Source: an uncultured Candidatus Saccharibacteria bacterium
GTDB taxonomy: Bacteria; Patescibacteriota; Saccharimonadia; Saccharimonadales; Saccharimonadaceae
Assembly (NCBI GenBank): GCA_963522905.1
Contig: CAUQYS010000003.1
Coordinates: 42,845 to 106,844 of the forward strand
Reading direction: 5' to 3'
Length of the DNA stretch: 64,000 nucleotides
The position numbers and the translations under genes are program-made. Shown one piece after another: positions 7,235 through 30,283 of this stretch; positions within the stretch are counted from its first letter, which is position 1, and the number at the start of each line of letters is the position of its first letter. The notes below the pieces were generated by a model. That model saw nothing but the letters and a program-made list of their open reading frames with translations, had not been told where the DNA came from and did no database searches.

Positions 7235-7322
7235 GGAGAGGTGCAGGAGTGGTTGAACTGGCCGCTCTCGAAAAGCGGTAAGCCGCAAGGCTTCGAGGGT
7301 TCGAATCCCTCTCTCTCCGCCA
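7235..7322 (+). tRNA. tRNA-Ser (anticodon CGA), CCA encoded
   Basis: Manual fold: acceptor GGAGAGG/TCTCTCC, anticodon stem CCGCT/AGCGG with loop CTCGAAA, long variable arm, T-arm GAGGG-TTCGAAT-CCCTC. Confidence 0.9.
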
Positions 7323-8310: not shown

Positions 8311-8403
8311 GGAGGAGTACCCAAGTGGCTGAAGGGGACGGTTTGCTAAATCGTTAGTGTGGGGAGACCTGCAGCGGGAGTTCGAATCTCCCCTCCTCCG
8401 CCA
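8311..8403 (+). tRNA. tRNA-Ser (anticodon GCT), CCA encoded
   Basis: Manual fold: acceptor GGAGGAG/CTCCTCC, anticodon stem ACGGT/ATCGT with loop TTGCTAA, long variable arm, T-arm GGGAG-TTCGAAT-CTCCC. Confidence 0.9.
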
Positions 8404-8858: not shown

Positions 8859-11726
8859 GTGAAGATTAGACGTCAAAAACGTGGGATCGTCATGCGCATC
8901 GCATCGGTTGTGGCTGTGAGTGGGCTCGCTATAGGCGGGCTTTTTTATGGTCTCAACTCGGTGAACGCAGCCGGTCTGAATAAAAACTATAATTATATCA
9001 AGGCAAATTACGCTGTGCCGAACGCCAACGTAGCCTGGGTGTCGCCCAACGGGGACGACAACAAGGGTAACGGAAGCGAGTCAGCACCGTACAAGAGCTT
9101 TGGTCGCGCCGTCACGAAGATCGGCGACGGCGGAACAGTGGTAGCAAAGAGTGGTATCTACCGCGAGCCACACTTTTTTGTGACGAAGAAGAATGTCACT
9201 ATGCAGGCAGCACCGAACGCTGAGGTGTGGCTGAAGGGTAGTGATGTTGTAACCAACTGGTCGCGCGAGGGCAATACGTGGAAGGCCACCGGCAACTTCC
9301 AGAACTTCTGCCACGTCTGTACGACCAATATCAAGCCAGAAGTCGAAGGTATGGCTGCCTACCCAGAGCAGGTCTTTATTAATGACAAGCCACTGACGCA
9401 GGTGGGGAGCAAGGCTGAGGTCGGCCCAGGCAAGTTCTATGTGGAAGACGCCACTCAGACGACGCGTAGCGGTGGGCACTTCAACCCAGGCCGGCAAGAC
9501 ACCGTGAGTTACTACCTAGGCTCAGACCCAACGGCTGGCACAACGGAGATCTCGCAGCGCACTCGCGCCTTTACTACAACAGGCGAGAACTTCAAGCTGC
9601 AGGGTATTAATATTTCGCAATACGCACCTAACCAAACCTGGGGCTTTAAAGACCCACAGCTGGATGACAAGGCTGGGCCAATCGCTATCTCCATCAACGG
9701 GAAGAACTCGCTGGTGCAAGATGTGATCGTAGCGCAGAACTCGAACTCGGGGTTGTTCCTCGATAAAGCATCGGGCAGCGTAGTGAAGAACAGCCAATTC
9801 CTCGACAACGGGGGTAATGGTGCTGGTGCCAACCGCATCGAGAATGCGGTGTTTGAAAACAACACCTTTAGCAACAACAACGCCGCTGGCTTCGAAACCA
9901 ATGGTAGCTACTGTACCTCATGGTGTGGTATGGCCGATGTGAAGGTGACTCACGCCGAGAACTTCACCTTCCGCAACAACGTGGTGGATTACTCGAAGTC
10001 TGGCTCGACCAACTCCGACATCGCTGTGGCCAAGCGCCACCAGCTGCCAGGCTTCTGGTGTGATGAAGGATGTATTAACACCAACATCGTCAACAACTAC
10101 TTTACCAACGTCCAGATGGCGATCTTCTACGAGGTGTCGCACACTGGTATCATCGCTTCGAACATCATCGAGGGTTCGGGCTCTGGTATCTTAGTGTCGG
10201 GTAGCAGTAAGACGAAGATCTACAACAACTCTATCTCACGCACCGCCTACCCAATCCGCATCCGTGAGGATACCCGCAGCAAGGGTTGTAATGCCTACCA
10301 AGGTAGCACCTGTACTGCACCGGAGAGCTGGTCGCAGGCCAAAGGCCTGAGCTGGGATACAACAGGCACAGAGATGTACAACAACATCATCTCATCACGT
10401 GCCGCAACTGCCAAGGATGGCGATAGCCCATACTGGGCATACGGTGTCCGCACCAAGGGTGGTGCTAACATTGGCGGGCCAAAGGTTGGCACAAACGAGA
10501 TGTTTGCTGGCCTCGACTACAACGTCTACTACCGCAACGATACCAATGTCGACAAGACCGTCTTTACCTGGGACTTGGCTCAGACGGACGCGCCGATCGA
10601 CGTTCTCTTTAGCAAGACATCCGACATTGCCAAAGATGGCCGGGTCAGCAAGGCGATCGATGGCCTGGAGCGCAACTCGCTCGACCAAACTGGCTCACGC
10701 AGCGCCAACCCATTCTTCACCAGCGAAGCTGCGAACAACAACGACTACAACAAGAGTAACTACACCATCAAGGCTGGAAGCCCAGCTGCCAACAGTGGTA
10801 AGGAGCTGCCTGCCGACGTAGCGAAGGCAATCGACCCAAGCGGTGCAACCGTGAAGGCCGGCACCAAGGTGAACCGTGGTGCACTGGTCAACGCCAACAT
10901 GACTGGTGGCGAACCAAACATCAGCAGTAAGAGCAGTAGCACCCCACAACAAAATAACGCCAACGGTGCAACGACCAACGGGCAGGCAAACCCAAAAGCA
11001 CCGGGCATGGGCAGCGCCAGTAAAGCTGACACTGCTCATGCAGCCCAAACTGCTGAAGCCGACACCAAGAGTGACAACAGCACTGTAGCGGTCCCAGACG
11101 CCCATCTTAAGGCGGCAATCAACAAGCGCTTGTCTGAGACCCTTGGCGCACGCCGCAGTGCCTCACAGGACGTAACAGCAGGCGAGATGCAAAAGTTGAC
11201 TGGCCTGTCGCTCATCCTGCCGGGTGATGCAGCAGATGACCGCAAAGTGGCCGACCTGACTGGTCTTGAGGTGGCAACGAACCTCGACTGGCTGGCAATT
11301 GATGGCAACAAAGTGAAGAGCCTTGCACCGCTCGCCAAGCTAACCAAGCTGACTTCGTTGACCGCTCATTCCAACCAGATCGAGTCGCTTGACCCAATCG
11401 CTGGCCTGGCGAACCTCAAGCTTGTGATGGTCTCGGGCAATCCAATTACCTCCACCAAGCCGCTTGCTAAGCTTGCGCACCTCAAGCGGGTCTCGCTCTC
11501 GGGCAAAGATGGCTTCGTGCTAGACATTGCCGACGTTGCGGCCAGCAAGAGCAGCCTGGAGTCGCTCTCACTCTACGACTACAGCCGCAAGACCACACTG
11601 GCCAACGGTAGCCAACTAGCGACATTTGGCAGCCTCAAGAAGCTTCGCCTCACTGGCGTCAAGCTAAATGCTGCCGATAGCGCCGCCATTGGCACACTCA
11701 AACTCGAAAAGCGCCGCATAGACTAG
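8859..11726 (+). CDS. Secreted right-handed beta-helix (pectate-lyase-like) protein with C-terminal leucine-rich repeats
   Basis: 955 aa with a GTG start after SD GGGGAGG. Signal peptide IASVVAVSGLAIGGLFYGLNSVNAAG. PbH1-like repeats (NSGLFLDKASGSVVKNSQFLDNGGNGAGANRIENAVFENNTFSNNNAAGFE). A Ser/Asn/Ala-rich linker is followed by ~22-aa LRRs (LTSLTAHSNQIESLDPIAGLANLKLVMVSGNPITS). Confidence 0.7.
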   Translation: MKIRRQKRGIVMRIASVVAVSGLAIGGLFYGLNSVNAAGLNKNYNYIKANYAVPNANVAWVSPNGDDNKGNGSESAPYKSFGRAVTKIGDGGTVVAKSGIYREPHFFVTKKNVTMQAAPNAEVWLKGSDVVTNWSREGNTWKATGNFQNFCHVCTTNIKPEVEGMAAYPEQVFINDKPLTQVGSKAEVGPGKFYVEDATQTTRSGGHFNPGRQDTVSYYLGSDPTAGTTEISQRTRAFTTTGENFKLQGINISQYAPNQTWGFKDPQLDDKAGPIAISINGKNSLVQDVIVAQNSNSGLFLDKASGSVVKNSQFLDNGGNGAGANRIENAVFENNTFSNNNAAGFETNGSYCTSWCGMADVKVTHAENFTFRNNVVDYSKSGSTNSDIAVAKRHQLPGFWCDEGCINTNIVNNYFTNVQMAIFYEVSHTGIIASNIIEGSGSGILVSGSSKTKIYNNSISRTAYPIRIREDTRSKGCNAYQGSTCTAPESWSQAKGLSWDTTGTEMYNNIISSRAATAKDGDSPYWAYGVRTKGGANIGGPKVGTNEMFAGLDYNVYYRNDTNVDKTVFTWDLAQTDAPIDVLFSKTSDIAKDGRVSKAIDGLERNSLDQTGSRSANPFFTSEAANNNDYNKSNYTIKAGSPAANSGKELPADVAKAIDPSGATVKAGTKVNRGALVNANMTGGEPNISSKSSSTPQQNNANGATTNGQANPKAPGMGSASKADTAHAAQTAEADTKSDNSTVAVPDAHLKAAINKRLSETLGARRSASQDVTAGEMQKLTGLSLILPGDAADDRKVADLTGLEVATNLDWLAIDGNKVKSLAPLAKLTKLTSLTAHSNQIESLDPIAGLANLKLVMVSGNPITSTKPLAKLAHLKRVSLSGKDGFVLDIADVAASKSSLESLSLYDYSRKTTLANGSQLATFGSLKKLRLTGVKLNAADSAAIGTLKLEKRRID

Positions 11727-12099: not shown

Positions 12100-12176
12100 T
12101 GGTACACTCGGCGCGATTCGAACGCACGACCTTTGGCTCCGCAAGCCAACGCTCTATCCAGCTGAGCTACGAGTGC
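12100..12176 (-). tRNA. tRNA-Arg, anticodon GCG by manual fold, CCA encoded
   Basis: The reverse complement reads GCACTCG TA GCTC AGCTGGATA GAGC G TTGGC TTGCGGA GCCAA AGGTC GTGCG TTCGAAT CGCGC CGAGTGT A CCA. It has a G1-U72 wobble and loop TTGCGGA, giving anticodon GCG. Confidence 0.85.
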
Positions 12177-13107: not shown

Positions 13108-13196
13108 TGGCGGAGAGAGTGGGATTCGAACCCACGGTAGGGGGTGCCTACGCCGGTTTTCAAGACCGGTACCTTCAACCACTCGGTCATCTCTCC
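13108..13196 (-). tRNA. tRNA-Ser (anticodon TGA), CCA encoded
   Basis: The reverse complement reads GGAGAGATGACCGAGTGGTTGAAGGTACCGGTCTTGAAAACCGG...GTGGGTTCGAATCCCACTCTCTCCGCCA. Anticodon loop is CTTGAAA. Confidence 0.9.
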
Positions 13197-14142: not shown

Positions 14143-14667
14143 ATGGCCCGGAGTCAAGATGATGATCTTTTGATCGGTGATGAGCTTGCGGCAGCATTTT
14201 TGGAGGGTGATGACTCGCTCGCGCCAGCTGCGCCAACTCACCAGCCGATGAATCACGCCCAAGCAAACCCAATGCCTGCCCAGAGTCAGCAGAGCCAAAC
14301 TTCGCCATGGGGCGAAGAGCCTGCCCAGAGCGAAGAGGACTACACTGGCCAATTGGCAGTCGATGTGTACGAGACCGAAACACAGCTCGTGGTGAAGGCC
14401 CGCACCGCTGGAGTAAACCGCGAGGAGCTAGATGTGAAGATCAATGACGGGCTGTTGACAATCGTTGGCACCCTAAGCAGTGGTGACGACACCGTAGCCA
14501 CCAAATGGCACAACCAAGAGTGCTACTGGGGTGAATTTAGCCGTACGCTGGAGCTGCCCGTAACGGTACGTGAGGATGAGACGACTGCCGTGCTGAAGGA
14601 TGGCGTACTGACCATTACCTTCGAGAAGGTTAAGCAAGAGCAGGCTAAGAAGATCCCGATCCTGTAG
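14143..14667 (+). CDS. Hsp20/alpha-crystallin family small heat-shock protein
   Basis: ATG 14143 lies 7 nt after GGAGG. Alpha-crystallin domain: LAVDVYETETQLVVKARTAGVNREELDVKINDGLLTIVG...FSRTLELP...AVLKDGVLTITF. Confidence 0.85.
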   Translation: MARSQDDDLLIGDELAAAFLEGDDSLAPAAPTHQPMNHAQANPMPAQSQQSQTSPWGEEPAQSEEDYTGQLAVDVYETETQLVVKARTAGVNREELDVKINDGLLTIVGTLSSGDDTVATKWHNQECYWGEFSRTLELPVTVREDETTAVLKDGVLTITFEKVKQEQAKKIPIL

Positions 14668-14695
14668 AGAAGGGAAAACGAGCTTTGAGATAATG

Positions 14696-14719
14696 ACCCC
14701 GCTGATGCGGGGTTGTTTT
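14696..14719 (+). terminator. Rho-independent terminator
   Basis: Stem ACCCCGC / GCGGGGT with loop TGAT, followed by TGTTTT. Confidence 0.85.
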
Positions 14720-15051
14720 GTGCTACGGGTAGCTAATAAGGTCTTTCATGGTATTCTTGTCTTATATATTCTTATTTCGTTTAGTAGAGCGTGAATATTG
14801 GCAATCTGGGGCTGGTAGACGGCACTCTAAGAGGTTAGCGCTGTAGTAATCGGAGAAGAGGGTTTCAGATGGAATTTCTTAGCTAGAGTAGAATAGTATG
14901 GCTAGTGCTACGCAAAAACGGCTAATATTAGACATCTCTGCAGTAAGAAGAGACAAGATTTCTTGCACGAGCGTCAACAAGCATATTCCTAACGAAAGTA
15001 CCACCCTGCGAGAGGGTGGTATAAGAGAGCCAATGAAGAAAGGTGGTTGTG

Positions 15052-15492
15052 TTATTGCCCTTGGTTGGCACCGATATTGACGACGACGAAGTTGACGAGC
15101 GCGTAGGCGATGATCGCAACGACAAGACCAACGATGGCGTACATGATGGTGTTCTTAGCGCCAGTAACGGCATTTGAGTCACCATTTGATACGGTATAGC
15201 GCACACCGCCGATGACGATCATGATAACAGCGACTGCACCAACGATGAAGAGGATCACGTTGACGACAGTTTGAAAGATACCAGTGCCTTCAGTACAGCC
15301 TTCTTTTTCGCTACCAAAGAGACAACTTACTTGGTCGTTCCCCTTAGCAGAGCCAACTCCCTTCCTGAGGCCAAGACCGTTGTCGGATGCAGCTGCTGCG
15401 CCAACGTGTGGAGCTACCAGCCCAGCAACACCTGCAGCTAGCACTGGCACGGCGAGGAGTGTAAGCATAGCTTTTTTGATATTGATTTTCAT
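15052..15492 (-). CDS. VirB2/TrbC-like pilin-like protein (array member 6)
   Basis: Signal peptide MKINIKKAMLTLLAVPVLAAG and Cys pair CLFGSEKEGC. Module: ILFIVGAVAVIMIVIGGVRYTVSNGDSNAVTGAKNTIMYAIVGLVVAIIAYALVNFV. Confidence 0.75.
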   Translation of the reverse strand: MKINIKKAMLTLLAVPVLAAGVAGLVAPHVGAAAASDNGLGLRKGVGSAKGNDQVSCLFGSEKEGCTEGTGIFQTVVNVILFIVGAVAVIMIVIGGVRYTVSNGDSNAVTGAKNTIMYAIVGLVVAIIAYALVNFVVVNIGANQGQ

Positions 15493-15649
15493 TGTCGTAT
15501 CCTTTCTATTGGCGTTAGTACTGTCTTGTACTACCTGTACTATCTATATATACCAAAAATTTGCCAAAATGTTAAGAGCTAACGGAGAAAATTACCGAAA
15601 AAGAGCCTATTTTATTGCAGAATGCAAGCAAAGTAAATGATAGTGGTAG

Positions 15650-16102
15650 TTAGACGTAATTATATTGGGCGGTTGGAGTGGATTGGCCACCACCACTCAC
15701 GAGGTTATCAACGACGAAATTGACCATGGCATAGGCGAGAATAGCCACAACAAGGCCGACAATAGCGTAGAGAATGGTATTTTTGGCACCCTGGATGCCG
15801 TTTGAGTCGCCGTTAGATGTGGTGTAGCGAATACCACCGATGACGATCATGACGACGGAGATAGCGCCGAGGGCAAAGAGCATGATGTCGATGATGCTTT
15901 TGATAGCTGAGCCGATGGTTATTTGGTTGCTGTCTCCACCAGCACCCTTGATGCCTTCCTTAACCTTTTCCTTTGCCGTAGTGCTTGCCGCAAAGGTGTT
16001 GATGGGTGATGGCGCTGCTGCGCTGATCGATGGGGCAATGGCACCAGCTACAACAGTGGAGCAGATGCTTGCGCTGAGAAGTATTTTTGTAAAGGTATTC
16101 AT
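15650..16102 (-). CDS. VirB2/TrbC-like pilin-like protein (array member 5)
   Basis: Signal peptide MNTFTKILLSASICSTVVAGA. Module: IMLFALGAISVVMIVIGGIRYTTSNGDSNGIQGAKNTILYAIVGLVVAILAYAMVNFV. SD GGGAG lies upstream. Confidence 0.75.
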   Translation of the reverse strand: MNTFTKILLSASICSTVVAGAIAPSISAAAPSPINTFAASTTAKEKVKEGIKGAGGDSNQITIGSAIKSIIDIMLFALGAISVVMIVIGGIRYTTSNGDSNGIQGAKNTILYAIVGLVVAILAYAMVNFVVDNLVSGGGQSTPTAQYNYV

Positions 16103-16118
16103 GGTGGTTGTATCTCCC

Positions 16119-16547
16119 TTATGTTATCGATATTCTATCAGTAATCCAATTTACTATACCATAGGCAAGTATAGCAATGACAAGACCTGCTACTGCATAG
16201 AGGATAGTGTTGCGAGCGGCCTTAACTTTCTGTGGGTCGCCATCAGCTAATGTAAAGCGAAAGCCCGCATAGACAATCATAAGGGCAGAGACGCCACCAA
16301 GAACAACGAGGGCAATGTTAATGCCACGTGTGACGATGACCATTGGAGTGAGAGCACCACCTTGTGCACTTGAAGTTACCGCATGGCAGCCATCGTTACC
16401 ATCACCGTCGGTAGCTAGATCGCAGGCATTATCAGTCTTGAGTTCTCCTGTGACGTCAACACGGGCAAAGGCGGAGGGTGAATAGGTAAGACCGAGCAAC
16501 AGGGCTGTACCAATAAGACAGAGTGTGCGCTGTAGAGATAGCTTCAT
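16119..16547 (-). CDS. VirB2/TrbC-like pilin-like protein (array member 4)
   Basis: Trimmed to ATG 16545-16547 (MKLSLQRTLCLIGTALLLG...). Cys pair NACDLATDGDGNDGC. Module: INIALVVLGGVSALMIVYAGFRFTLADGDPQKVKAARNTILYAVAGLVIAILAYGIVNWI. The start shares one nt with the upstream stop (TGATG). Confidence 0.7.
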   Translation of the reverse strand: MKLSLQRTLCLIGTALLLGLTYSPSAFARVDVTGELKTDNACDLATDGDGNDGCHAVTSSAQGGALTPMVIVTRGINIALVVLGGVSALMIVYAGFRFTLADGDPQKVKAARNTILYAVAGLVIAILAYGIVNWITDRISIT

Positions 16548-16837
16548 CAAAAGACTCCATTTAGAACAGTATTGGTAATGACAAAAGCGAGAAGAACAAC
16601 AGCGAGACCAACAATGGCACCAAGCAGGGTGTTCTTGGCGCGACTTACTTGGCTTGGGTCGTCTTGTGACACGGTATACATAAAACCCGCTACAATAATG
16701 ACGATAACTGCAACCACCCCGGCCCAAATATAAGCAGTGTTAAGGACATTTTGAAGAATGCTTGAGTTATCCGCGGAGCTTTGGTATTTGATATCTTGTG
16801 CACTAACACCTTTGAGGGCTGAGAATATAGGCCACAT
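16547..16837 (-). CDS. VirB2/TrbC-like pilin-like protein lacking a signal peptide (array member 3)
   Basis: 96 aa. Contains ...AYIWAGVVAVIVIIVAGFMYTVSQDDPSQVSRAKNTLLGAIVGLAVVLLAFVITN. The ATG directly follows the stop of 16838..17242 (TAAATG). Confidence 0.65.
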   Translation of the reverse strand: MWPIFSALKGVSAQDIKYQSSADNSSILQNVLNTAYIWAGVVAVIVIIVAGFMYTVSQDDPSQVSRAKNTLLGAIVGLAVVLLAFVITNTVLNGVF

Positions 16838-17242
16838 TTAGATAACTCCCGCTACCATATCAACAATTGCTGCTGCTGAGATTGCAATAACGAGACCAAT
16901 AAGAGCATCGCGGATCGTGTTCTTTGCTTTAGCCATTGCATCGGGGCTGCCTGTACTGACCATATACATATAGCCACCCTTAATGATAAACCCAACGGCA
17001 ACATAGGCAACGATAACCATTGCAGCCTGAAGGATATTGAGGGCAATTGTGAGGATCATCGTCTGGATGTCGGTCGTTTGGATCGAACTGCAATCGTTCG
17101 AGTCTTGGAGACCACGGTACCAAGCGGGCATACCAAGGAAGTTGGGTGGTGAACAGGGTGCAGCAGCGTGCGCTGGAGTAGCAGACGCAAAGGAGAGTAT
17201 GGTGGCAACAGCAAGCCCAAAAACAGCAAGACGGCGAATCAT
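16838..17242 (-). CDS. VirB2/TrbC-like pilin-like protein (array member 2)
   Basis: Signal peptide MIRRLAVFGLAVATILSFASATPAHA and Cys pair (PCSPP...NDCSS). Module: ILQAAMVIVAYVAVGFIIKGGYMYMVSTGSPDAMAKAKNTIRDALIGLVIAISAAAIV. ATGA overlap with the upstream gene. Confidence 0.65.
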   Translation of the reverse strand: MIRRLAVFGLAVATILSFASATPAHAAAPCSPPNFLGMPAWYRGLQDSNDCSSIQTTDIQTMILTIALNILQAAMVIVAYVAVGFIIKGGYMYMVSTGSPDAMAKAKNTIRDALIGLVIAISAAAIVDMVAGVI

Positions 17243-17637
17243 CGGATAATTCCTCCTGGCACAAGGAAGTTAAGCGCAATACCCATAACTGCATATGCCA
17301 AAATACCAATGACAACATTAGTGATAACTGTCTTGGCTTGGGCTGTTTTGTTGGCATCACCGCTAGCAGTTGAGTAGAGAATACCAGCGTAAATAAGCGC
17401 GCCAACGGCCGCAATGCCAACGCCGACATTCATGATTCTGAGAACGCCAATGAGTAGGCTAGAGATGTTGTCATCTCCCTTATCTTTTGGGTTAGCCTCT
17501 TGGGAACAACTTACGCCTGTGAAGTCAATAATCCCGCAGCCACTGCCTGTTGCCATCACCTGCACTGGCGCAGCAATACTACCGGCAAACATCGCCAGCA
17601 CTGCACCAAGGCCCAAGATTAATCGCTTATATTTCAT
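17239..17637 (-). CDS. VirB2/TrbC-like pilin-like protein (array member 1)
   Basis: Trimmed to ATG 17635-17637 (MKYKRLILGLGAVLAMFAGS...). Cys pair GCGIIDFTGVSC. Module: LLIGVLRIMNVGVGIAAVGALIYAGILYSTASGDANKTAQAKTVITNVVIGILAYAVMGIALNFL. Confidence 0.65.
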   Translation of the reverse strand: MKYKRLILGLGAVLAMFAGSIAAPVQVMATGSGCGIIDFTGVSCSQEANPKDKGDDNISSLLIGVLRIMNVGVGIAAVGALIYAGILYSTASGDANKTAQAKTVITNVVIGILAYAVMGIALNFLVPGGIIR

Positions 17638-17936
17638 GATACTATTCCTACGCTGTAGTGTATACGATACGAGCGGTGTTGTAAAGACTGGGGTGGGGTG
17701 CGAACAGAGTAGGAGTGAGGGGTTATATATTGGCATTGTTATAATGGTGCATAAAATTTGAGTTGCTTGATCTATCGGGCGATTTCCTCCCTGTTGTGTT
17801 ACTCAGGAGGAGATGATAAATTGCGGATGGTTATTGTGGCTCAGCACTGGGGATGTGACCTTAGATAATGGTAGCCCGTACAACAGCTCAGAGAGCTGCG
17901 CGCTATACAAGGTTTTGATATGCAGGCAGCAAAAAC

Positions 17937-23839: not shown

Positions 23840-23914
23840 AACGATATCATATCATATCGAGGTGCGATGTAAAGAGCAGCGATATAATATCCAAAAAACA
23901 TAGCTTGCCAGCCA

Positions 23915-23923
23915 TGCTACAAT
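23915..23923 (+). promoter_or_regulatory. Extended -10 promoter (TGcTACAAT), leaderless
   Basis: TGcTACAAT is followed by 6 nt (actcct) and ATG 23930. Confidence 0.6.
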
Positions 23924-23929
23924 ACTCCT

Positions 23930-25396
23930 ATGAAACTGAAACGACTGATGATGCCGCTGCCGTATCGGCGTTTGGTGATTGCTTTTGTGGCGGGGTTTTG
24001 TGTGATGGTGTTTGAGCTGGTAGCAGCGCGGGTGATGTCGCCAGTGGTGGGGGCGTCGACGTATGTGTGGGCGAGTATTATTGGCGTCATCATTGCGGCG
24101 ATGAGCCTGGGCTACTGGCTGGGTGGCGTGCTAGCCGATACGCGCTCGCGCGATGGCGATGTGGCGTGGCTGCTGCTTGGTGCGGCGCTGCTGATGCTAA
24201 CGGAGCTATGCCAATACCACGATATATTGCGGTGGGTAGCGCAGCTGCCGATCGATATTCGCCTGCAAGCTACAGTAGCGGCAAGCCTACTTTTTGCTCC
24301 GACCAGCCTGGTGCTGGGAGCAGTGAGTCCCTACCTGGTGGAGCGGCAGACAGAGACGCTGGCGCGAACGGGGCGGTCGGTGGCGTCGCTGAGTGCGGTG
24401 AATTCGATTGGTGGGATCGTTGGCACCTTTGCGGCGGGGTTTTTCTTGTTTGGTTGGCTGGGGATTCACGACGTGCTGGTGGTACTCATTAGTCTGCTCG
24501 TGCTAGCCAGCTGGCTGGTGGTGCCAGGCCAGCGCTGGCAGTGGCGCGTGGTGGTGAGTGTGCTGTGCGTGGGCCTGGCGCTGGGCTATCGCGTGGCACC
24601 AGTGGTGCGGGCCCAGGCTGCGCAGATGATCGATACCGCCGCGGCGCACTACACACTCCAGCAATGGCATCGGCAGGATGGCGTGATTATCCGCGGGATC
24701 GCCAGTGGCCCGGTCGGTGTGCAGTCTGGTGTGGTGGTTGGGCAGCCTCAGCAGCTGCCATTTTGGTATACGCGCCAGATGATGCAGGCGGTAGAACAGG
24801 CCCCGCAGCGGCAGCGCATTTTGGTGCTGGGCGGTGGGACTTTCACAGTGCCGCGCCTCCTTGCTCAGCGCTATCCGCAGAGCCAGATCGATGTGGTAGA
24901 GATTGATCCAGGGCTCTTGCCGATTGCTCGCCAGTATTTTTATTATCGCGACCCAGCCAATGTGCGGCCGATCTTCCAAGATGCGCGCGTCTTTCTCGAG
25001 CGCAGCACCGAGCAGTACGATATCGTCCTTGTTGATGTGTACAACGACGGCGATGTACCCGCCTCACTGGCAACACACGAGTATGCTACCGCACTCAAGC
25101 GGCATCTCCGCCCCCAGGCTCGTGTGGTGGTTAATATGATTGCCAGCCGCCAGCCAGCCTGCCAGCCACTGTTCGCTGCTCAGGATGCGCCGTATGCCGC
25201 TCTATTGGGGCAGGGGAGTTTTCGTTATGAGCGGGCAGATGGCTGGGATTATACTAATGTCGTGGCGACGTACGGTGGCGATAATACTTCTCGCCAGCCA
25301 GCTCCCTTCGCCAGCCAGCCGCCGTACCATGATGATTATGCTCCTCTCGAGCGATTGCGGCAGGAGTGCCGAGAGGTGTCTGAGAGTAAGAGATAG
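23930..25396 (+). CDS. Fused polytopic membrane domain / spermidine-synthase-like methyltransferase-fold protein
   Basis: 488 aa. About 7 N-terminal TM helices, then a Rossmann-like region ILVLGGGTFTVPRLLAQRYPQSQIDVVEIDPGLLPIARQYF...YDIVLVDVYND. Confidence 0.7.
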   Translation: MKLKRLMMPLPYRRLVIAFVAGFCVMVFELVAARVMSPVVGASTYVWASIIGVIIAAMSLGYWLGGVLADTRSRDGDVAWLLLGAALLMLTELCQYHDILRWVAQLPIDIRLQATVAASLLFAPTSLVLGAVSPYLVERQTETLARTGRSVASLSAVNSIGGIVGTFAAGFFLFGWLGIHDVLVVLISLLVLASWLVVPGQRWQWRVVVSVLCVGLALGYRVAPVVRAQAAQMIDTAAAHYTLQQWHRQDGVIIRGIASGPVGVQSGVVVGQPQQLPFWYTRQMMQAVEQAPQRQRILVLGGGTFTVPRLLAQRYPQSQIDVVEIDPGLLPIARQYFYYRDPANVRPIFQDARVFLERSTEQYDIVLVDVYNDGDVPASLATHEYATALKRHLRPQARVVVNMIASRQPACQPLFAAQDAPYAALLGQGSFRYERADGWDYTNVVATYGGDNTSRQPAPFASQPPYHDDYAPLERLRQECREVSESKR

Positions 25397-25481
25397 CTAG
25401 CTCTCCGATAACAATGGGAAGGGTCGTACATAATGCTTTGTTGTTATATAAATATAATGAAGCTAGATATTCTCTGCGTTA

Positions 25482-25672
25482 GCTCCACCTCCCCATACTT
25501 CATCCGATGGAGTGTGAAAACTCGTTGTAATAACGAGTTTTCAGCCCAGCGCAAGAGGTCGATATCCAGTGAATATCGACCCTTATAGCGTTCCTGAGGA
25601 TGGAGTGTGGGGAGGTGGAGCGTGAGATAATGCCAAAGTGCTGAGTTTTTGTGCGCTATCACCAACAGAGGT
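25482..25672 (+). ncRNA. Candidate structured RNA / intergenic repeat element, copy E1
   Basis: Closing stem GCTCCACCTCCCCA (25482-25495) / TGGGGAGGTGGAGC (25608-25621), extended by CTTCATCC/GGATGGAG with one T-G wobble. Internal hairpins GAAAACTCGTT/AACGAGTTTTC and GGTCGATAT/ATATCGACC. Collinear sequence blocks are shared with 51487..51623 (minus). Function unknown. Confidence 0.45.
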
Positions 25673-25708
25673 CACCCGCAAAATCGGTTGTAGTTTTCAC
25701 AAAACCTC

Positions 25709-25764
25709 TTGCCAAGCACCATATCTGGCGCCTATAGTAGGACCCAGACGCTACATATATAGCG
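25709..25764 (+). promoter_or_regulatory. Candidate nrd promoter (TTGCCA-N18-TATAGT) overlapped by two AT-centred palindromes
   Basis: Palindrome GCACCATATCTGGCGC (25716-25731, 12/16 self-complementary) fills the spacer. Palindrome CGCTACATATATAGCG (25749-25764, 14/16) lies just past the expected start site. Their centres are 33 bp apart. Confidence 0.35.
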
Positions 25765-25867
25765 AGCACACATAAACACGGGAGAGACAACAATACAGCT
25801 TGGCTCCAGGCGTGCCCTGGTGGCTGGTTTTGTGCACCGTATGATAAGGAGCCTAAGGGGAGGGATA

Positions 25868-28303
25868 ATGACGATTCATATTACCAAGCGCGATGGCACG
25901 ACCGAGCCATTTGACACAACCAAGATAAATGCCACGTTGCTGGCAGCAAGCCAGGGGCTGGCCGATCCGCTGCAGAAGATCGTGCAGATTGCTCGCGAGC
26001 TGCAGCTGACGCTCTTTGATGGGATGACGACCAAGCAGCTGGAGGAGACGCTCATCCAGACGACGGTGCAGAATATTAAGGATGACCCAGACTACGACAC
26101 GATTGCGGCGCGCCTGCTGCTGGGCACGATCTACCGCGATTTGCTGGGCGTATATACTACTGATGAAGAATTGCGCCAGCGTCACGCTGAGGCCTTTCCG
26201 CGCTATATTCGCCAGGCAGTGGCCGATGGCTTGCTTGACCCCCGCATGCAAGATGAGACGATCTTCGACCTCGAGCGCCTGGCTGCTGCGCTTGACCCGA
26301 GTAAAGATAAACTCAGCAAATATCTTGGCGTGGTGACCAACCGCAACCGCTACGCCCTGCGCAAGCAAAACGGCGAGCCGCTCGAAGTGCCGCAGTTTAC
26401 CACTATGCGCATCGCCATGGGCCTGAGCTACAATGAGGAACACCCTACTGAGGCAGCCATTGAGTTTTACCAGCACATGGCTAATCTCGAATACAGCCCG
26501 GGCGGTAGCACCCGCGTTAATGCTGGTGGGTTGTTCCCGCAGCTGAGCAACTGCTTCGTCATGGAAGTGCAGGATGATATGGAGTCCATTGCCAAGAGTG
26601 TGCGCGATACAATGTGGATTGCCAAAGGGACGGGCGGCATTGGTATCAGCTTTACCAAGCTGCGGGCGGCGGGCAGCCCCGTCAAGACGACCAACACAAC
26701 AAGCACGGGGCCAATTCCATTTATTAAGATGATCGATACAGCGCTGTTTGCGGTGTCACGCAAGGGTAAGAAGATGGGTGCAGCTGCTGTGTATATGGAA
26801 AACTGGCACATCGATTTCAAGGAATTTATAGACCTGCGCTCTAACTCCGGCGACCCGTATTTGCGGACACGCTACCTCGACACAGCGGTGTTTATTAGTG
26901 ATGAATTTATGCGCCGGGTGCAGGCTGATGAAGACTGGTATCTCTTTGATCCAGCCGAGGTGAGTGACTTGAGCGAGCTGTATGGTGCGGCTTTCGCTAA
27001 GCGGTATGCGTATTACATTACTCAGGCCGAAGCGGGCAAGCTGCGCGCTTATGATAAGCTGCCTGCACGCCAGCAATTCCACAGAATTCTCAGTAGTTTG
27101 CAGGCGACCGGCCACCCGTGGCTCACCTGGAAGGACGCTATTAACCTCCGGGCGCTTAACAATAACACTGGTACTATTCACCTCAGCAATCTCTGTACAG
27201 AGATCACTTTGCCGCAAAACGAGCACAATATTGCGGTGTGTAATCTGGTGAGTATCAACCTCAGCGCTTTCCTGGATGACGCGACCAAGACGTGGGACTG
27301 GCCACGACTCGAGCAGGCGACGCGCTCAGCCACGCGGCAACTTGATAACCTTGTAGACATTACCACAACACCTATCTCGGAGGCGATGAATAGTAACCTG
27401 CAAAATCGAGCGATTGGCCTGGGCTTTATGGGTCTTGCCGATGTGCTAGAAAAGCTCGAGCTGAGCTATGAATCTGAGGCGGCGTACGAGCTGATCGATC
27501 AGCTGGCGGAGTTTATTAGCTACTACGCCATCGACGAGTCGGCCGAGCTAGCGGTGACGCGCGGTAGCTATCCTAACTTTGCTGGCAGTGGCTGGAGCAA
27601 GGGGGAATTGCCTATCGACACGATTGACCGGCTTGGCGCGCAGCGGGGTGAGGCAGTAGCAATTAACACGACTCGCCGCCTCGACTGGGAGGCACTTCGC
27701 CCCAAGGTGAGGCGCGGCATGCGCAATGCCACGCTTATGGCCATCGCTCCCACCGCCAATATCTCGCACGTGACGGGTACCACTCCAGGGATCGACCCGC
27801 AATTTAGCCAGATCTTTAGCCGGAGCACGCTCAACGGTAAATTCCTTGAGGTCAATGCTAACCTGGTGCGCAAACTCAAAGCACTCGGCCTGTGGGAGGA
27901 GCTTAAGGATGAGCTGCTTACTAACCAAGGCGACATCCAGCACATGGAGCAGATCCCTCAGGCGGTGCGCGACGTGTATAAGACGAGCTTTCAGCTTAGC
28001 CCGTATGCCTTCATTGAGGTGGCAGCCCGCGCTCAGAAGTGGGTTGACCAAGCGATTAGCCGCAATATGTATTTAGAATCGCGTAATATCGAGGAGTATA
28101 TTACGATCTACAGCGAAGCCTGGCGTCGCGGCCTGAAAACGACGTATTATTTGCACGTGAAGCCACGCCACCAGTCCGAGCAGGTCTCCATCCGTGCCAA
28201 CAAAACCGAGCAAAAACTCCACCAAGACGCCAAGCGCGTGGGCTTTGGTGGCTTCTACCGCGCACGCAAGAAGCAGGAGGAAGGGAAGGAGAAGGAATCA
28301 TGA
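25868..28303 (+). CDS. nrdA: Class I ribonucleoside-diphosphate reductase alpha subunit with N-terminal ATP-cone
   Basis: ATG 25868 after SD GGGGAGGG. ATP-cone HITKRDGTTEPFDTTKI. Active-site motifs LSNCFVME, NLCTEI and IAVCNLVSINL. Radical-transfer pair TTYYL. Confidence 0.93.
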   Translation: MTIHITKRDGTTEPFDTTKINATLLAASQGLADPLQKIVQIARELQLTLFDGMTTKQLEETLIQTTVQNIKDDPDYDTIAARLLLGTIYRDLLGVYTTDEELRQRHAEAFPRYIRQAVADGLLDPRMQDETIFDLERLAAALDPSKDKLSKYLGVVTNRNRYALRKQNGEPLEVPQFTTMRIAMGLSYNEEHPTEAAIEFYQHMANLEYSPGGSTRVNAGGLFPQLSNCFVMEVQDDMESIAKSVRDTMWIAKGTGGIGISFTKLRAAGSPVKTTNTTSTGPIPFIKMIDTALFAVSRKGKKMGAAAVYMENWHIDFKEFIDLRSNSGDPYLRTRYLDTAVFISDEFMRRVQADEDWYLFDPAEVSDLSELYGAAFAKRYAYYITQAEAGKLRAYDKLPARQQFHRILSSLQATGHPWLTWKDAINLRALNNNTGTIHLSNLCTEITLPQNEHNIAVCNLVSINLSAFLDDATKTWDWPRLEQATRSATRQLDNLVDITTTPISEAMNSNLQNRAIGLGFMGLADVLEKLELSYESEAAYELIDQLAEFISYYAIDESAELAVTRGSYPNFAGSGWSKGELPIDTIDRLGAQRGEAVAINTTRRLDWEALRPKVRRGMRNATLMAIAPTANISHVTGTTPGIDPQFSQIFSRSTLNGKFLEVNANLVRKLKALGLWEELKDELLTNQGDIQHMEQIPQAVRDVYKTSFQLSPYAFIEVAARAQKWVDQAISRNMYLESRNIEEYITIYSEAWRRGLKTTYYLHVKPRHQSEQVSIRANKTEQKLHQDAKRVGFGGFYRARKKQEEGKEKES

Positions 28304-28587
28304 GCCACGAGTATAGCAATATAGCAAAGATGAGAGCAAGCACAGAACTGCCAGTTGATGGAACGCAGCAGCCAGAGCTCGCGCCGGGTGGTGTCCACCA
28401 CACTATCGGCACTGTAGCAACGGGAGAGGCAGACGGCACAGCCTCAATACATTATGTCCAAGATGCCCTTGATGTTGGTCTGGACTCACCACTCTTCCCA
28501 GTACCGCAAACAGAGAAAAAATTGAGTCAGCAAGATAACAGCTTCGTAGCCGAGCGTCACCCAGCAGATATGGGACCAGAAATATAA
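28300..28587 (+). CDS. Hypothetical acidic 95-aa protein between nrdA and nrdB
   Basis: The ATG overlaps the nrdA stop (ATGA), suggesting translational coupling. No Cys and no recognisable domain. Confidence 0.35.
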   Translation: MSHEYSNIAKMRASTELPVDGTQQPELAPGGVHHTIGTVATGEADGTASIHYVQDALDVGLDSPLFPVPQTEKKLSQQDNSFVAERHPADMGPEI

Positions 28588-28640: not shown

Positions 28641-29618
28641 ATGGGCATTTTAGGATCAGGCGTACGCGATGGCTTGCAGCTCAAGCCGGTGCGCTATGAC
28701 TGGGCGTACCGCCTATACAACCAAGCGGTGGCTAACACGTGGTTCCCTAATGAGGTACAGTTGAGTCAGGATTTGGCGGATTTTGAGAAATTGAGTGAGG
28801 ACGAAAAGCATGCCCTCAAGATGGTGATTAGCTACCTTAACCCTAACGAGCTGCTGATTAATAAATCGCTGGCTTTTGGTATTTACCCCTGCGTGAACGC
28901 CGCCGAGTGCCACCTGTATCTTTCGAAACAGATGTGGGAAGAGGCGAATCACTTTATGACCTTCGAGTATATTATCGAGACCTTCCCGTTTGACCGTGAG
29001 GAAATTTATGCGGCGGGCTGGGGTAAAAAATCCTTGGCGGATAAAGCCGCCTTCCAGACCAAATACGTCACGCGTATGATGGAAGAGCGCCCGGATGTGA
29101 CGACGCTGGAGGGCAAGAAGGACTTTGTGCGCAACTTGGTGGCGTATAACATCGTGCTGGAGGGGATTTGGTTCTACAGTGGTTTTATGGTGGGAATGAG
29201 CTTCCGCCGGCGCAACCTACTGCGCAACGTTGGCACGCTGCTGGACTGGGTAACGAAGGACGAAAATCTACACCTGGAGTTTGGCATTAACCTGCTGCTG
29301 ACTATTTTGCACGAAAACCCGGACTTGCAGACCGAGGAGTTTGCTGAGGAAATCCGCAGCTTGATTCTCGAAGCTGTTGAGCTCGAGAAAGCGTATAACA
29401 AAGACATGCTGCCGCGCGGCATTCTGGGCCTAAACGCTGACTACGTCAACCAGTATGTCATGTATATGACTGACCGGCGGCTGGAAGAGCTCGGCTTTGA
29501 GCCAGAGTATAACGTGACGAACCCGGCCAAGTGGATGGCCGCTGCCAACGACACGCTGGAGCTGGTGAACTTCTTCGAGAGTACGAATACGAGTTATGAG
29601 GTGAATACGACGAAGTAG
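28641..29618 (+). CDS. nrdB: Ribonucleotide reductase beta subunit, class Ic-like (Phe at the radical-Tyr position)
   Basis: SD AAGGAGG. Metal ligands: NPNELLI (Glu where class Ia has Asp), EEANH (ExxH), VLEGIWFYSGF, DENLH (ExxH). The residue at His+4 is Phe (HFMTF), not Tyr. C-terminal tail FFESTNTSYEV. Confidence 0.88.
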   Translation: MGILGSGVRDGLQLKPVRYDWAYRLYNQAVANTWFPNEVQLSQDLADFEKLSEDEKHALKMVISYLNPNELLINKSLAFGIYPCVNAAECHLYLSKQMWEEANHFMTFEYIIETFPFDREEIYAAGWGKKSLADKAAFQTKYVTRMMEERPDVTTLEGKKDFVRNLVAYNIVLEGIWFYSGFMVGMSFRRRNLLRNVGTLLDWVTKDENLHLEFGINLLLTILHENPDLQTEEFAEEIRSLILEAVELEKAYNKDMLPRGILGLNADYVNQYVMYMTDRRLEELGFEPEYNVTNPAKWMAAANDTLELVNFFESTNTSYEVNTTK

Positions 29619-29657
29619 TAGACAGAACAATCTTACTAGTCTACCAGTCTTACGGGA

Positions 29658-29772
29658 GCTCTCACTCCATCACCAGACCGAAAATGTTCCGGCCAGAATA
29701 TGCAACAGAGCTTTTCCGCCTGCTTGGTCGCTGGCCTCCAGATATTTTCTTGTCTGGCAATGGAGTGAGAGC
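29658..29772. other. 115-nt rod-like imperfect hairpin (inverted repeat) 40 nt after the nrdB stop (E2)
   Basis: Paired segments are GCTCTCACTCCAT/ATGGAGTGAGAGC (13 bp), CCAGAC/GTCTGG, GAAAAT/ATTTTC, GGCCAG/CTGGCC and CAACAG/CTGcTTG. They are separated by small internal loops. Confidence 0.5.
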
Positions 29773-29829
29773 GGCCCGCTGATGTAGCAAATAATATTCG
29801 CAAATTAGATACGAAAGGAATATGAGCTT

Positions 29830-30225: not shown

Positions 30226-30283
30226 AACGCTATATATAGCGTACAATAGACACTATAACTAAAAAACGGGTAGGGAATAATAT

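Follow-up and report, generated by a model that had tools for sequence, protein, structure and literature searches.

A dispersed and mobile family of stalk-and-head elements in Saccharibacteria, probably encoding a structured small RNA

The stretch of DNA studied here, referred to as the window, comprises 64,000 nucleotides of an uncultured Candidatus Saccharibacteria bacterium (contig CAUQYS010000003.1, positions 42,845 to 106,844 of the forward strand) and is a portion of a 981-kb metagenome scaffold with 53.6% G+C. Between a methyltransferase-like gene and the nrd operon of this window lies a highly structured element, denoted as E1, and a second palindromic element, E2, directly follows nrdB, the operon being bracketed by the two. 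Our analysis reveals that E1 units behave, at the DNA level, as mobile and unstable intergenic repeats, present in some and absent from other close relatives, and that the fold of one strand has been kept over time, with stems that tolerate G-U and not A-C and with junctions that are almost invariant. On balance, E1 is probably a copy of an undescribed family of mobile elements, about 180 nt in length and built as a stalk and a head, which encodes a structured small RNA.

In a sliding fold of 140 nt over the whole window, E1 is the top structure outlier on both strands (-7.7 and -5.4 standard deviations), and the runner-up is a similar palindromic element at 29641-29780, just past nrdB. Folded as RNA, the plus strand of E1 has a minimum free energy (MFE) of -87.4 kcal/mol with z = -12.3, which was equalled by 0 of 200 shuffles, and the minus strand has one of -78.4 kcal/mol with z = -10.2. 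The fold of 25482-25621 consists of a stalk of 14+8 bp and two capping hairpins; an inverted-repeat tool gives the arms as 24 nt with 92% complementarity, and comparisons of the flanks stretch the unit to about 25459-25640. For the extent of the stalk, MFE folds with 60-nt flanks are uninformative, as chance pairings lengthen the helix. The parts of the element are as follows.

25453-25458, plus strand: -10-like box TATAAT, a perfect hexamer that abuts the 5' side of E1
25459-25481, plus strand: 5' leader GAAGCTAGATA, then the pyrimidine tract TTCTCT, then GCGTTA; family consensus ..TTCTCT GCGYTAGC, from flank conservation across sites
25482-25505, plus strand: 5' strand of the stalk, pyrimidine-rich, with P1 GCTCCACCTCCCCA (25482-25495), a TA loop and P1b CTTCATCC (25498-25505)
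25506-25516, plus strand: J1 GATGGAGTGTG, a near-invariant junction strand and direct repeat of 25599-25609
25516-25542, plus strand: hairpin H1 of 11 bp, GAAAACTCGTT / loop GTAAT / AACGAGTTTTC
25543-25556, plus strand: J2 AGCCCAGCGCAAGA, at least 95% conserved (CAGCCCA..CG.CAAGAGG)
25557-25581, plus strand: hairpin H2 of 9 bp, GGTCGATAT / loop CCAGTGA / ATATCGACC, with a conserved base and a covarying apical part (helix 7)
25582-25597, plus strand: J3 CTTATAGCGTTCCTGA, of which CCCTTATAG.GTTCC is at least 95% conserved
25598-25621, plus strand: 3' strand of the stalk, purine-rich and Shine-Dalgarno (SD)-like, with GGATGGAG (25598-25605), TG and TGGGGAGGTGGAGC (25608-25621)
25622-25640, plus strand: 3' tail GTGAGATAAT, then GCCAAAG; family consensus GTGAGA.A, with GCAAGG in other copies

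In the stalk, P1 (GCTCCACCTCCCCA/TGGGGAGGTGGAGC) forms a perfect helix of 14 bp and P1b (CTTCATCC/GGATGGAG) contains one T-G pair, with a 2x2 loop between them. In the model, UGGA of J1 pairs with UCC(N) of J3 and GU of J1 with GC of J2, CGC and AAG of J2 pair with CTT..GCG of J3, and a further pairing, P0, is possible between TCTC of the leader and GAGA in the 3' tail. These stems, loops and hairpins, together with the GATGGAGTGTG direct repeat (25506-25516 and 25599-25609), the TATAAT box just upstream and AACAGAGGT at 25664, had been described in a first-pass annotation of the window and were all found at the positions given there. Its further statement that E1 matches no known RNA family agrees with our scan of Rfam 15: at the gathering score the whole window gives three tRNAs only, a search at E <= 10 over 25380-25880 gives nothing meaningful (the best being a partial AgrB of 28.1 bits against a gathering score of 40), and the IS605-orfB and HEARO models do not match E1. 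Several other candidates were rejected. CUGAGGA at 25594-25600 resembles a core box of the hammerhead, yet it is unconserved in other copies; the open reading frames (ORFs) within E1 have only 7-14 codons and are unconserved, the ATG of J1 opening just 7; and an origin from a phage or plasmid finds no support, as phage records gave no blastn match to 25400-25900.

To sample the family, metagenome loci were collected by a pattern scan derived from the head, which gave at least 120 matches, and a covariance model, R1, was built from 25 E1 copies. R1 finds more than 100 full-length matches at 72-186 bits in the first hundred of these loci (L082-L181) and 20 in the remainder (L182-L201), more than 120 in total, and no further copies over the window and the distant NrdA loci. 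The unique sequences number 88, and their flanks fall into about 32 clusters, that is, about 30 intergenic sites. A single contig of 1.008 Mb (ODJT01000001.1) carries at least six full copies, and at least six contigs end within a copy, in the way that assemblies break at repeats. All of the copies are intergenic and none lies within a gene. With respect to the neighbour genes there is no rule of orientation, since tandem sense, tandem antisense, convergent and divergent arrangements are all seen; the 3' neighbour gene shares the strand of the element at about two thirds of the sites and, among the 11 copies whose leader and tail are intact, in 5. A pattern match in a viral contig (L202) and others in soil metagenomes were rejected as chance, having no R1 match. 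The family appears confined to one clade of Saccharibacteria with genomes of ~1 Mb, and our literature searches found no repeats or small RNAs described in Saccharibacteria.

Regarding the conservation among copies, the outer stalk sequences are wholly different between sites and their complementarity is kept (alternative arms are, for example, GCTTTGGTGGATCGAC/CGATACACCAAAGC), with a 5' strand that is nearly always pyrimidine-rich and a 3' strand that is purine-rich across the family. In the unique copies the junction strands are at least 95% conserved, namely C(C/U)GAUGGAGUGUGA, UCAGCCCAGCGCAAGAGG, the base of hairpin 2 and CCCUUAUAG.GUUCC. The leader (TTCTCT-GCGYTAGC) and the tail (GTGAGA.A, often followed by GCAAGG) extend the unit to ~180 nt, beyond which the flanks are unrelated; ATAAT-GAAGCT at the E1 of the window also occurs in a copy at an unrelated site (L082). 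Standard pairs fill 96.5% of the cells, against 87.3% after shuffling and 40-48% with the partner slid. Double changes are found in 29 of the 46 pairs and in 400 cells, neither of which was reached by any of 500 shuffles. They affect 18 of the 20 pairs in the stalk helices 1-2, and extend to 6 of the 8 pairs of H1 (e.g. CTCG/CGAG, CCGG/CCGG, CAGA/TCTG, TCTGTC/GACAGA), whose loop resembles GNRA (GUAA/GCAA) and is closed by a pair that covaries. The pattern of covariation is the same in an unfitted MAFFT alignment (A2) as in a second alignment, A4, and this very strong covariation in both bears out the earlier view that the structure is genuine and conserved.

The wobble pairs tell the strands apart. 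Over the 88 unique copies there are 444 G-U or U-G against 68 A-C or C-A, about 6.5 to 1, and since a transition that leaves G-U in one strand leaves A-C in its complement, it is the fold of the sense strand that appears to be selected. In the window this is the plus strand, which had been the choice of the first-pass annotation too. E1 shows both the covariation and the one-sided wobble that mark a structured non-coding RNA, and the selected molecule is most likely a transcript, as judged from these patterns. The same data bear on the explanation that E1 is selfish or neutral palindromic DNA without function, whose arm complementarity is kept by template switching or gene conversion, between arms or between copies. 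Template switching would give perfect and strand-symmetric pairs, which is not what the wobble counts display; the unpaired junction strands are the most conserved parts while the stems drift; and the covariation reaches the small inner hairpins. What such a neutral origin does account for is the frequency of arm-to-arm inversions and direct-repeat deletions described below, the limitation of the family to a narrow clade and the accumulation of elements in the same intergenic regions, and we regard it as quite unlikely.

The behaviour of E1 at the DNA level is seen by comparing related genomes at the same site. Filled sites have empty counterparts (L084 against L091, L092 and L178; L147 against L112), and in one locus (L131) there is an independent insertion in the opposite orientation about 10 nt away. 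At 5 of ~27 sites the element is inverted in situ: the flanks are the same, stalk and head are flipped, and the leader and tail are left behind in their positions, which is expected from recombination between the stalk arms. The stalk-only copies are exact deletions between the direct repeats in J1 and the 3' arm (GATGGAGTGTG), and elements pile up within the same intergenic regions. The idea that GATGGAGTGTG is the duplicated target of a smaller element comprising the head was rejected, as J1 is kept where the 3' arm has changed (L096, L119) and the empty sites are without stalk. The first-pass annotation had set against a structured RNA the scenario of a MITE (a miniature transposable element with inverted repeats), with copies inside genes that are bounded by target-site duplications; of this, the multiple and rearranging copies were found, and the location within genes and clear duplications were not.

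One might read the inversions as those of an invertible switch (inverton), in which the stalk arms serve as repeats for a site-specific invertase and a flipped outward promoter toggles the neighbour genes. Both orientations do occur in different genomes, with breakpoints at the stalk, and arms of 14-24 bp with an insert of about 90 bp are within the range of invertons. However, the arms differ between sites, so that one invertase could not recognise them all, no invertase gene lies nearby, and the inner hairpins covary, which is unneeded for a promoter segment. E1 has neither the shared inverted repeats nor the promoter in the segment by which an inverton is known (no promoter is conserved within the head and none is called inside E1), and this explanation is very improbable.

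The main rival of the RNA reading is that E1 is a non-autonomous single-stranded-DNA transposon of the REP/REPIN-RAYT or IS200/IS605 PATE type, of which the folded top strand (hairpin feet with conserved flanking nucleotides) is recognised by an HUH tyrosine transposase encoded elsewhere, the selected structure then being DNA. Such a transposon would explain the strand-specific folding with tolerated G-T, the stalk ends that are unconserved in sequence, unlike the inverted repeats of classical MITEs, the conserved single-stranded stretches beside covarying hairpins, the lack of a clear target duplication and the strictly intergenic, multi-copy occurrence. Yet neither near the 120 copies nor in the ~80 kb around the window is there a Y1/RAYT-like or other multi-copy ORF. 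In fact, the copy-bearing loci (~1.1 Mb) hold no recurrent ORF family in multiple contexts, no parent insertion sequence with the same ends was found in them or in the ~80 kb around the window, and the window with these surroundings has no transposase, integrase or reverse transcriptase gene. The orientation is also unrelated to local gene direction, the layout, a single long palindrome that bears a three-way junction, is not that of two subterminal hairpins, the loop of H1 is GNRA-like, and old, diverged copies keep the fold, which is unexpected for dead DNA transposons. All in all, we consider a single-stranded-DNA transposon unlikely.

As to the transcription of E1, hexamers resembling a -10 box, with A2 and T6, were sought at 27 sites in the sense direction with the antisense as control. 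Those matching at least 5 of 6 positions occur upstream of E1 at 10/27 sense sites against 2/27 antisense, and those matching at least 4 of 6 at 22/27 against 10/27. The window has the perfect TATAAT at 25453-25458, which a consensus promoter scan leaves uncalled because there is no -35 box. From these signals, transcription from an own promoter is plausible for the E1 of the window and unproven for the family. The stalk was rejected as an intrinsic terminator, with no enrichment of T-runs and no terminator call.

The proposal of the first-pass annotation that E1 is linked to the nrd operon can be judged from the neighbourhood of the element and its relatives. The genes around E1 are the following.

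Upstream neighbourhood of E1, before the methyltransferase-like gene: ABC transporter pair
Ending at 25396: methyltransferase-like gene of 488 aa, the upstream neighbour of E1
25868-28303, plus strand: nrdA, 3' of E1
28641-29618: nrdB, after nrdA and a 95-codon ORF
Further neighbours: PNPOx-like gene, CTP synthase gene and arginyl-tRNA synthetase (ArgRS) gene

The relatives by NrdA assign the window to Candidatus Saccharibacteria; the closest are about 24 species-level genomes at 97-99% identity, one of them labelled as an oral metagenome-assembled genome, and the next group, at 70-78% identity, includes Nanosynbacter. Among 80 NrdA-anchored loci compared by blastn with E1, the element occurs in the close clade only, where its copies take three positions and either orientation. 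At the nrd site, it is placed and oriented as in the window in 10 loci, has its inner part inverted in the L009 group, is inverted along with ~80 nt of the upstream flank in L018, L002, L004 and L007, and is cut down to a stalk-like remnant in L005 and L077; the intergenic length upstream of nrd varies from 371 to 703 nt. The promoter scan places an nrd promoter, TTGCCA-N18-TATAGT, at 25709-25738, downstream of E1, and the last ~200 nt before nrdA (25659-25867), which include this promoter, are 93-97% identical among relatives, far above the rest of the spacer.

In the nrd-linked explanation, E1 regulates as an RNA, be it as a leader in cis or as a small RNA in trans, and its CACCUCCCC arm pairs with GGGGAGG SD sequences, including that of nrdA. 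The distance from E1 to the start codon of nrdA, which lies downstream on the same strand, is indeed 246 nt, E1 has its TATAAT box, and the SD sequences at 25857 and 8844 find their complement in the arm. However, the nrd promoter lies downstream of E1, relatives with nearly the same NrdA carry it inverted or stalk-only at this site, the same element is found at about 30 unrelated sites without a rule of orientation, and GGGGAGG is a common SD-like motif with 16 occurrences in the window. Moreover, since the outer stalk differs between sites, the anti-SD-like 5' arm CACCTCCCC to which the first-pass annotation drew attention is a trait of one subfamily and not a defining one of the E1 family; in the copy of the window it is buried in the perfect 14-bp helix. 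The fixed position and sense orientation at nrd of a cis leader are not seen, nor is the conserved, accessible seed of an anti-SD small RNA. By comparative data this view is largely refuted and now highly improbable; E1 has no action specific to nrd, nor is the CCUCC arm a conserved seed.

Some side observations were made in the same neighbourhood. The conserved region 25659-25867 contains CACC.ACAGAGGTC....GCAAAATCGGTTGTAG and a GC-rich hairpin, CCAGGCGTGCCCTGG (25808-25822), and the ACAGAGGTC motif also occurs in the spacer downstream of nrdB in two relatives (L005, L011). An AT-rich palindrome, GCTACATATATAGC, lies at 25750-25763, just 3' of the nrd -10 box, and a similar one, CGCTATATATAGCG, at 30228-30241, upstream of a small ORF and the CTP synthase gene; these look like candidate operators of one nucleotide-metabolism regulator, and we take them to resemble NrdR boxes. 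The 95-codon ORF between nrdA and nrdB (28300-28587) overlaps the nrdA stop, has no Pfam match and is a called gene in the source assembly. In one relative (L183, ~9330-9350), a deletion upstream of nrd fuses GGGAGGTG, where the methyltransferase gene ends, with the E1 arm GGGGAGGTGGAGC; E1 is gone and the leader kept, which shows an involvement of the SD-like arm in illegitimate recombination.

Some relatives have a second E1 copy 1.8 kb upstream, within an insert of 570-790 bp that is absent from the window. This insert, whose empty site is at ~23905-23920 of the window, lies between the ABC-transporter and methyltransferase genes and is flanked by 8-bp direct repeats ACCATGCT. In four loci, L021 (1481-2046), L045, L014 and L020, an E1 copy shares the insert with a promoter of the form TTGACA-N17-TATATA, with a long 5' hairpin and with a hydrophobic small ORF that has a strong SD sequence (22 codons in L021, MEIILIWIAFAFLAILSINRED), and in L007 an E2-type element replaces E1 and the small hydrophobic ORF is a different one. 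By its layout the insert resembles a type I toxin-like module. A link of E1 itself with type I toxin-antitoxin systems was rejected, as one copy in relatives, in an insert of 570 bp, has the 22-codon hydrophobic ORF as neighbour, the window copy and most others being without it.

Apart from the genes listed above, the window consists of gene clusters for type IV secretion system (T4SS) pilins and housekeeping genes. Several tandem small T4SS_pilin (PF18895) genes, and one with a TrbC match, lie 8-11 kb upstream of E1 (14650-17736 region, gene lists of L001 and L204). The tRNAs at 8311-8403, 12100-12176 and 13108-13196 are called by ARAGORN and Rfam alike, and a tRNA-Ser(cga) at 7235-7322 is an ARAGORN call that is absent from the results of the Rfam tRNA model at the gathering score.

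The second element of the window resembles E1 in its general behaviour.

29658-29772, no strand assigned: E2, directly 3' of nrdB, with 21-nt arms and the conserved core CCAGACCGAAAATGTTCCGGCCAGA ... CTGGCCTCCAGATATTTTCTTGTCTGG

Its MFE is -68.3 on the plus strand and -73.5 on the minus strand. The core is near-invariant and the outer stem varies and covaries between copies. E2 is dispersed too, with 33 cores in the E1-bearing metagenome loci, and its orientation varies, the E2 downstream of nrdB being inverted in L003 and L011. Copies of E2 type are also found in the nrd upstream region of several relatives, and at one site the place of E1 is taken by an E2-type unit in a second genome. The tail motif GAGCGTGAGA is nearly exclusive to E1 copies, the one E2-type copy that bears an E1-type tail being added to them. 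E2 as a coding sequence was rejected, its 32-codon frame being broken in some copies.

Taking these results together, the following scenario may be suggested for E1 as a mobile element that probably encodes a structured small RNA. The selected molecule would be a sense transcript, which in the window might start just after the TATAAT at 25453-25458 and fold into a small RNA of stable structure. For its processing, the stalk, a long perfect helix, may be the site at which a double-strand-specific ribonucleasе of RNase III type would cut the head from a carrier transcript. The RNA could serve the spread or persistence of the element itself, or a function of the host.

Several points weigh against this interpretation. 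That E1 is transcribed is something we infer from sequence; the -10-like boxes stand at variable distance and without a -35 box, T-runs 3' of the stalk are not enriched (4/27 sense against 9/27 control), and the element is antisense to both flanking genes at 5 of ~29 sites. The alignment A4 was fitted to the model and favours structure, and the G-T wobble is tolerated in folded single-stranded DNA as well. No transposase, reverse transcriptase or recombinase adjoins the copies or lies in the window. Finally, the filled and empty pairs yield no convincing target-site duplication, with ambiguous 5-bp repeats only (AGGTT in L084, GTCTT in L131) and strongly diverged flanks.

A broader and more doubtful proposal, put forward tentatively, is that E1 and E2 are RNA cassettes of a new, mobile class found in the ultra-small bacteria of the candidate phyla radiation (CPR). 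In such cassettes the double-stranded stalk, free to evolve, would be a portable module for processing and insulation, and the interchangeable conserved heads would be functional RNAs (such as a ribozyme, a protein decoy or a factor required for copying of the element) cut from any host transcript, while the cassettes would do without a linked transposase in spreading, inverting and changing places among intergenic landing sites. The genomes of Saccharibacteria and other CPR bacteria are tiny and densely coding. According to a preprint on the TM7x transcriptome, these bacteria are without validated small RNAs (10.1101/2022.03.25.485537). E1 joins two features that are usually apart, the behaviour of mobile-repeat DNA and the conservation pattern of a functional RNA, and it offers more than 100 natural variants with a clear consensus, ready for RNA-seq, probing and structure work. 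It also calls for caution in annotation, as an element that recurs beside many genes is not to be read as a gene-specific regulator. What is more, assemblies break at E1 and E2, and the intergenic hot spots marked by them vary among close strains, which may be of use for strain typing and as neutral insertion sites in newly tractable organisms.

Finally, E1 can be compared with known systems. The TIGR-Tas arrays of CPR bacteria are built of 36-nt tandem units, unlike E1, and were rejected as a candidate (PMC12045711). From the classical MITE, E1 has the small, non-coding, multi-copy nature with presence/absence polymorphism and not the sequence-conserved terminal inverted repeats, as the copies share only short leader and tail motifs (GCGYTAGC, GTGAGA). 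PATEs, which derive from IS200/IS605 and carry scaffolds of guide RNA (omega-RNA), are likewise non-coding and multi-copy, with a structure selected on one strand and no evident target duplication; E1 differs in that no TnpA or TnpB was found and in its single closed stalk-plus-junction, which is not a layout of left end and right end.

The Correia elements (NEMIS/CREE) of Neisseria are about 100-155 bp in length, with conserved 26-bp terminal inverted repeats and TA target duplication, and their transcripts form a long hairpin cut by RNase III. E1 is like them in being small, multi-copy and mostly intergenic, in the long hairpin it would form if transcribed, in its promoter-like boxes and in the breaks it causes in assemblies; it is unlike them in the stalks unrelated between sites, in the lack of a clear duplication and in the conserved three-way-junction head with covarying hairpins. 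The ERIC/IRU and REP/BIME/REPIN families of proteobacteria are, like E1, imperfect palindromes dispersed between genes, which occur in either orientation and in clustered form. As RNA, their hairpins influence the fate of mRNA. REPs measure 20-40 bp, with GTAG or CGTC as a tag and RAYT genes linked to them, whereas E1 has about 180 nt, a branched head, no conserved end tag and no RAYT that was seen; ERIC is conserved in sequence over its full length, and E1 in its head only. Small bacterial repeats have been reviewed (PMC3184786, PMC2229807), as have REPs (PMC3733652). With the curated structured RNAs of unknown function that comparative genomics has yielded (the Rfam families named 'motif'), E1 shares covarying stems, invariant junction nucleotides, a GNRA-like loop and more than 100 representatives, and it stands apart from them by its several copies per genome in any orientation, its presence/absence and inversion, and its absence from Rfam 15. 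Judged by all these likenesses, E1 appears closest in its workings to the small dispersed palindromic repeats of bacteria (Correia, ERIC and REP/BIME), a type to which it brings a branched head that is conserved and covaries in the manner of an RNA.
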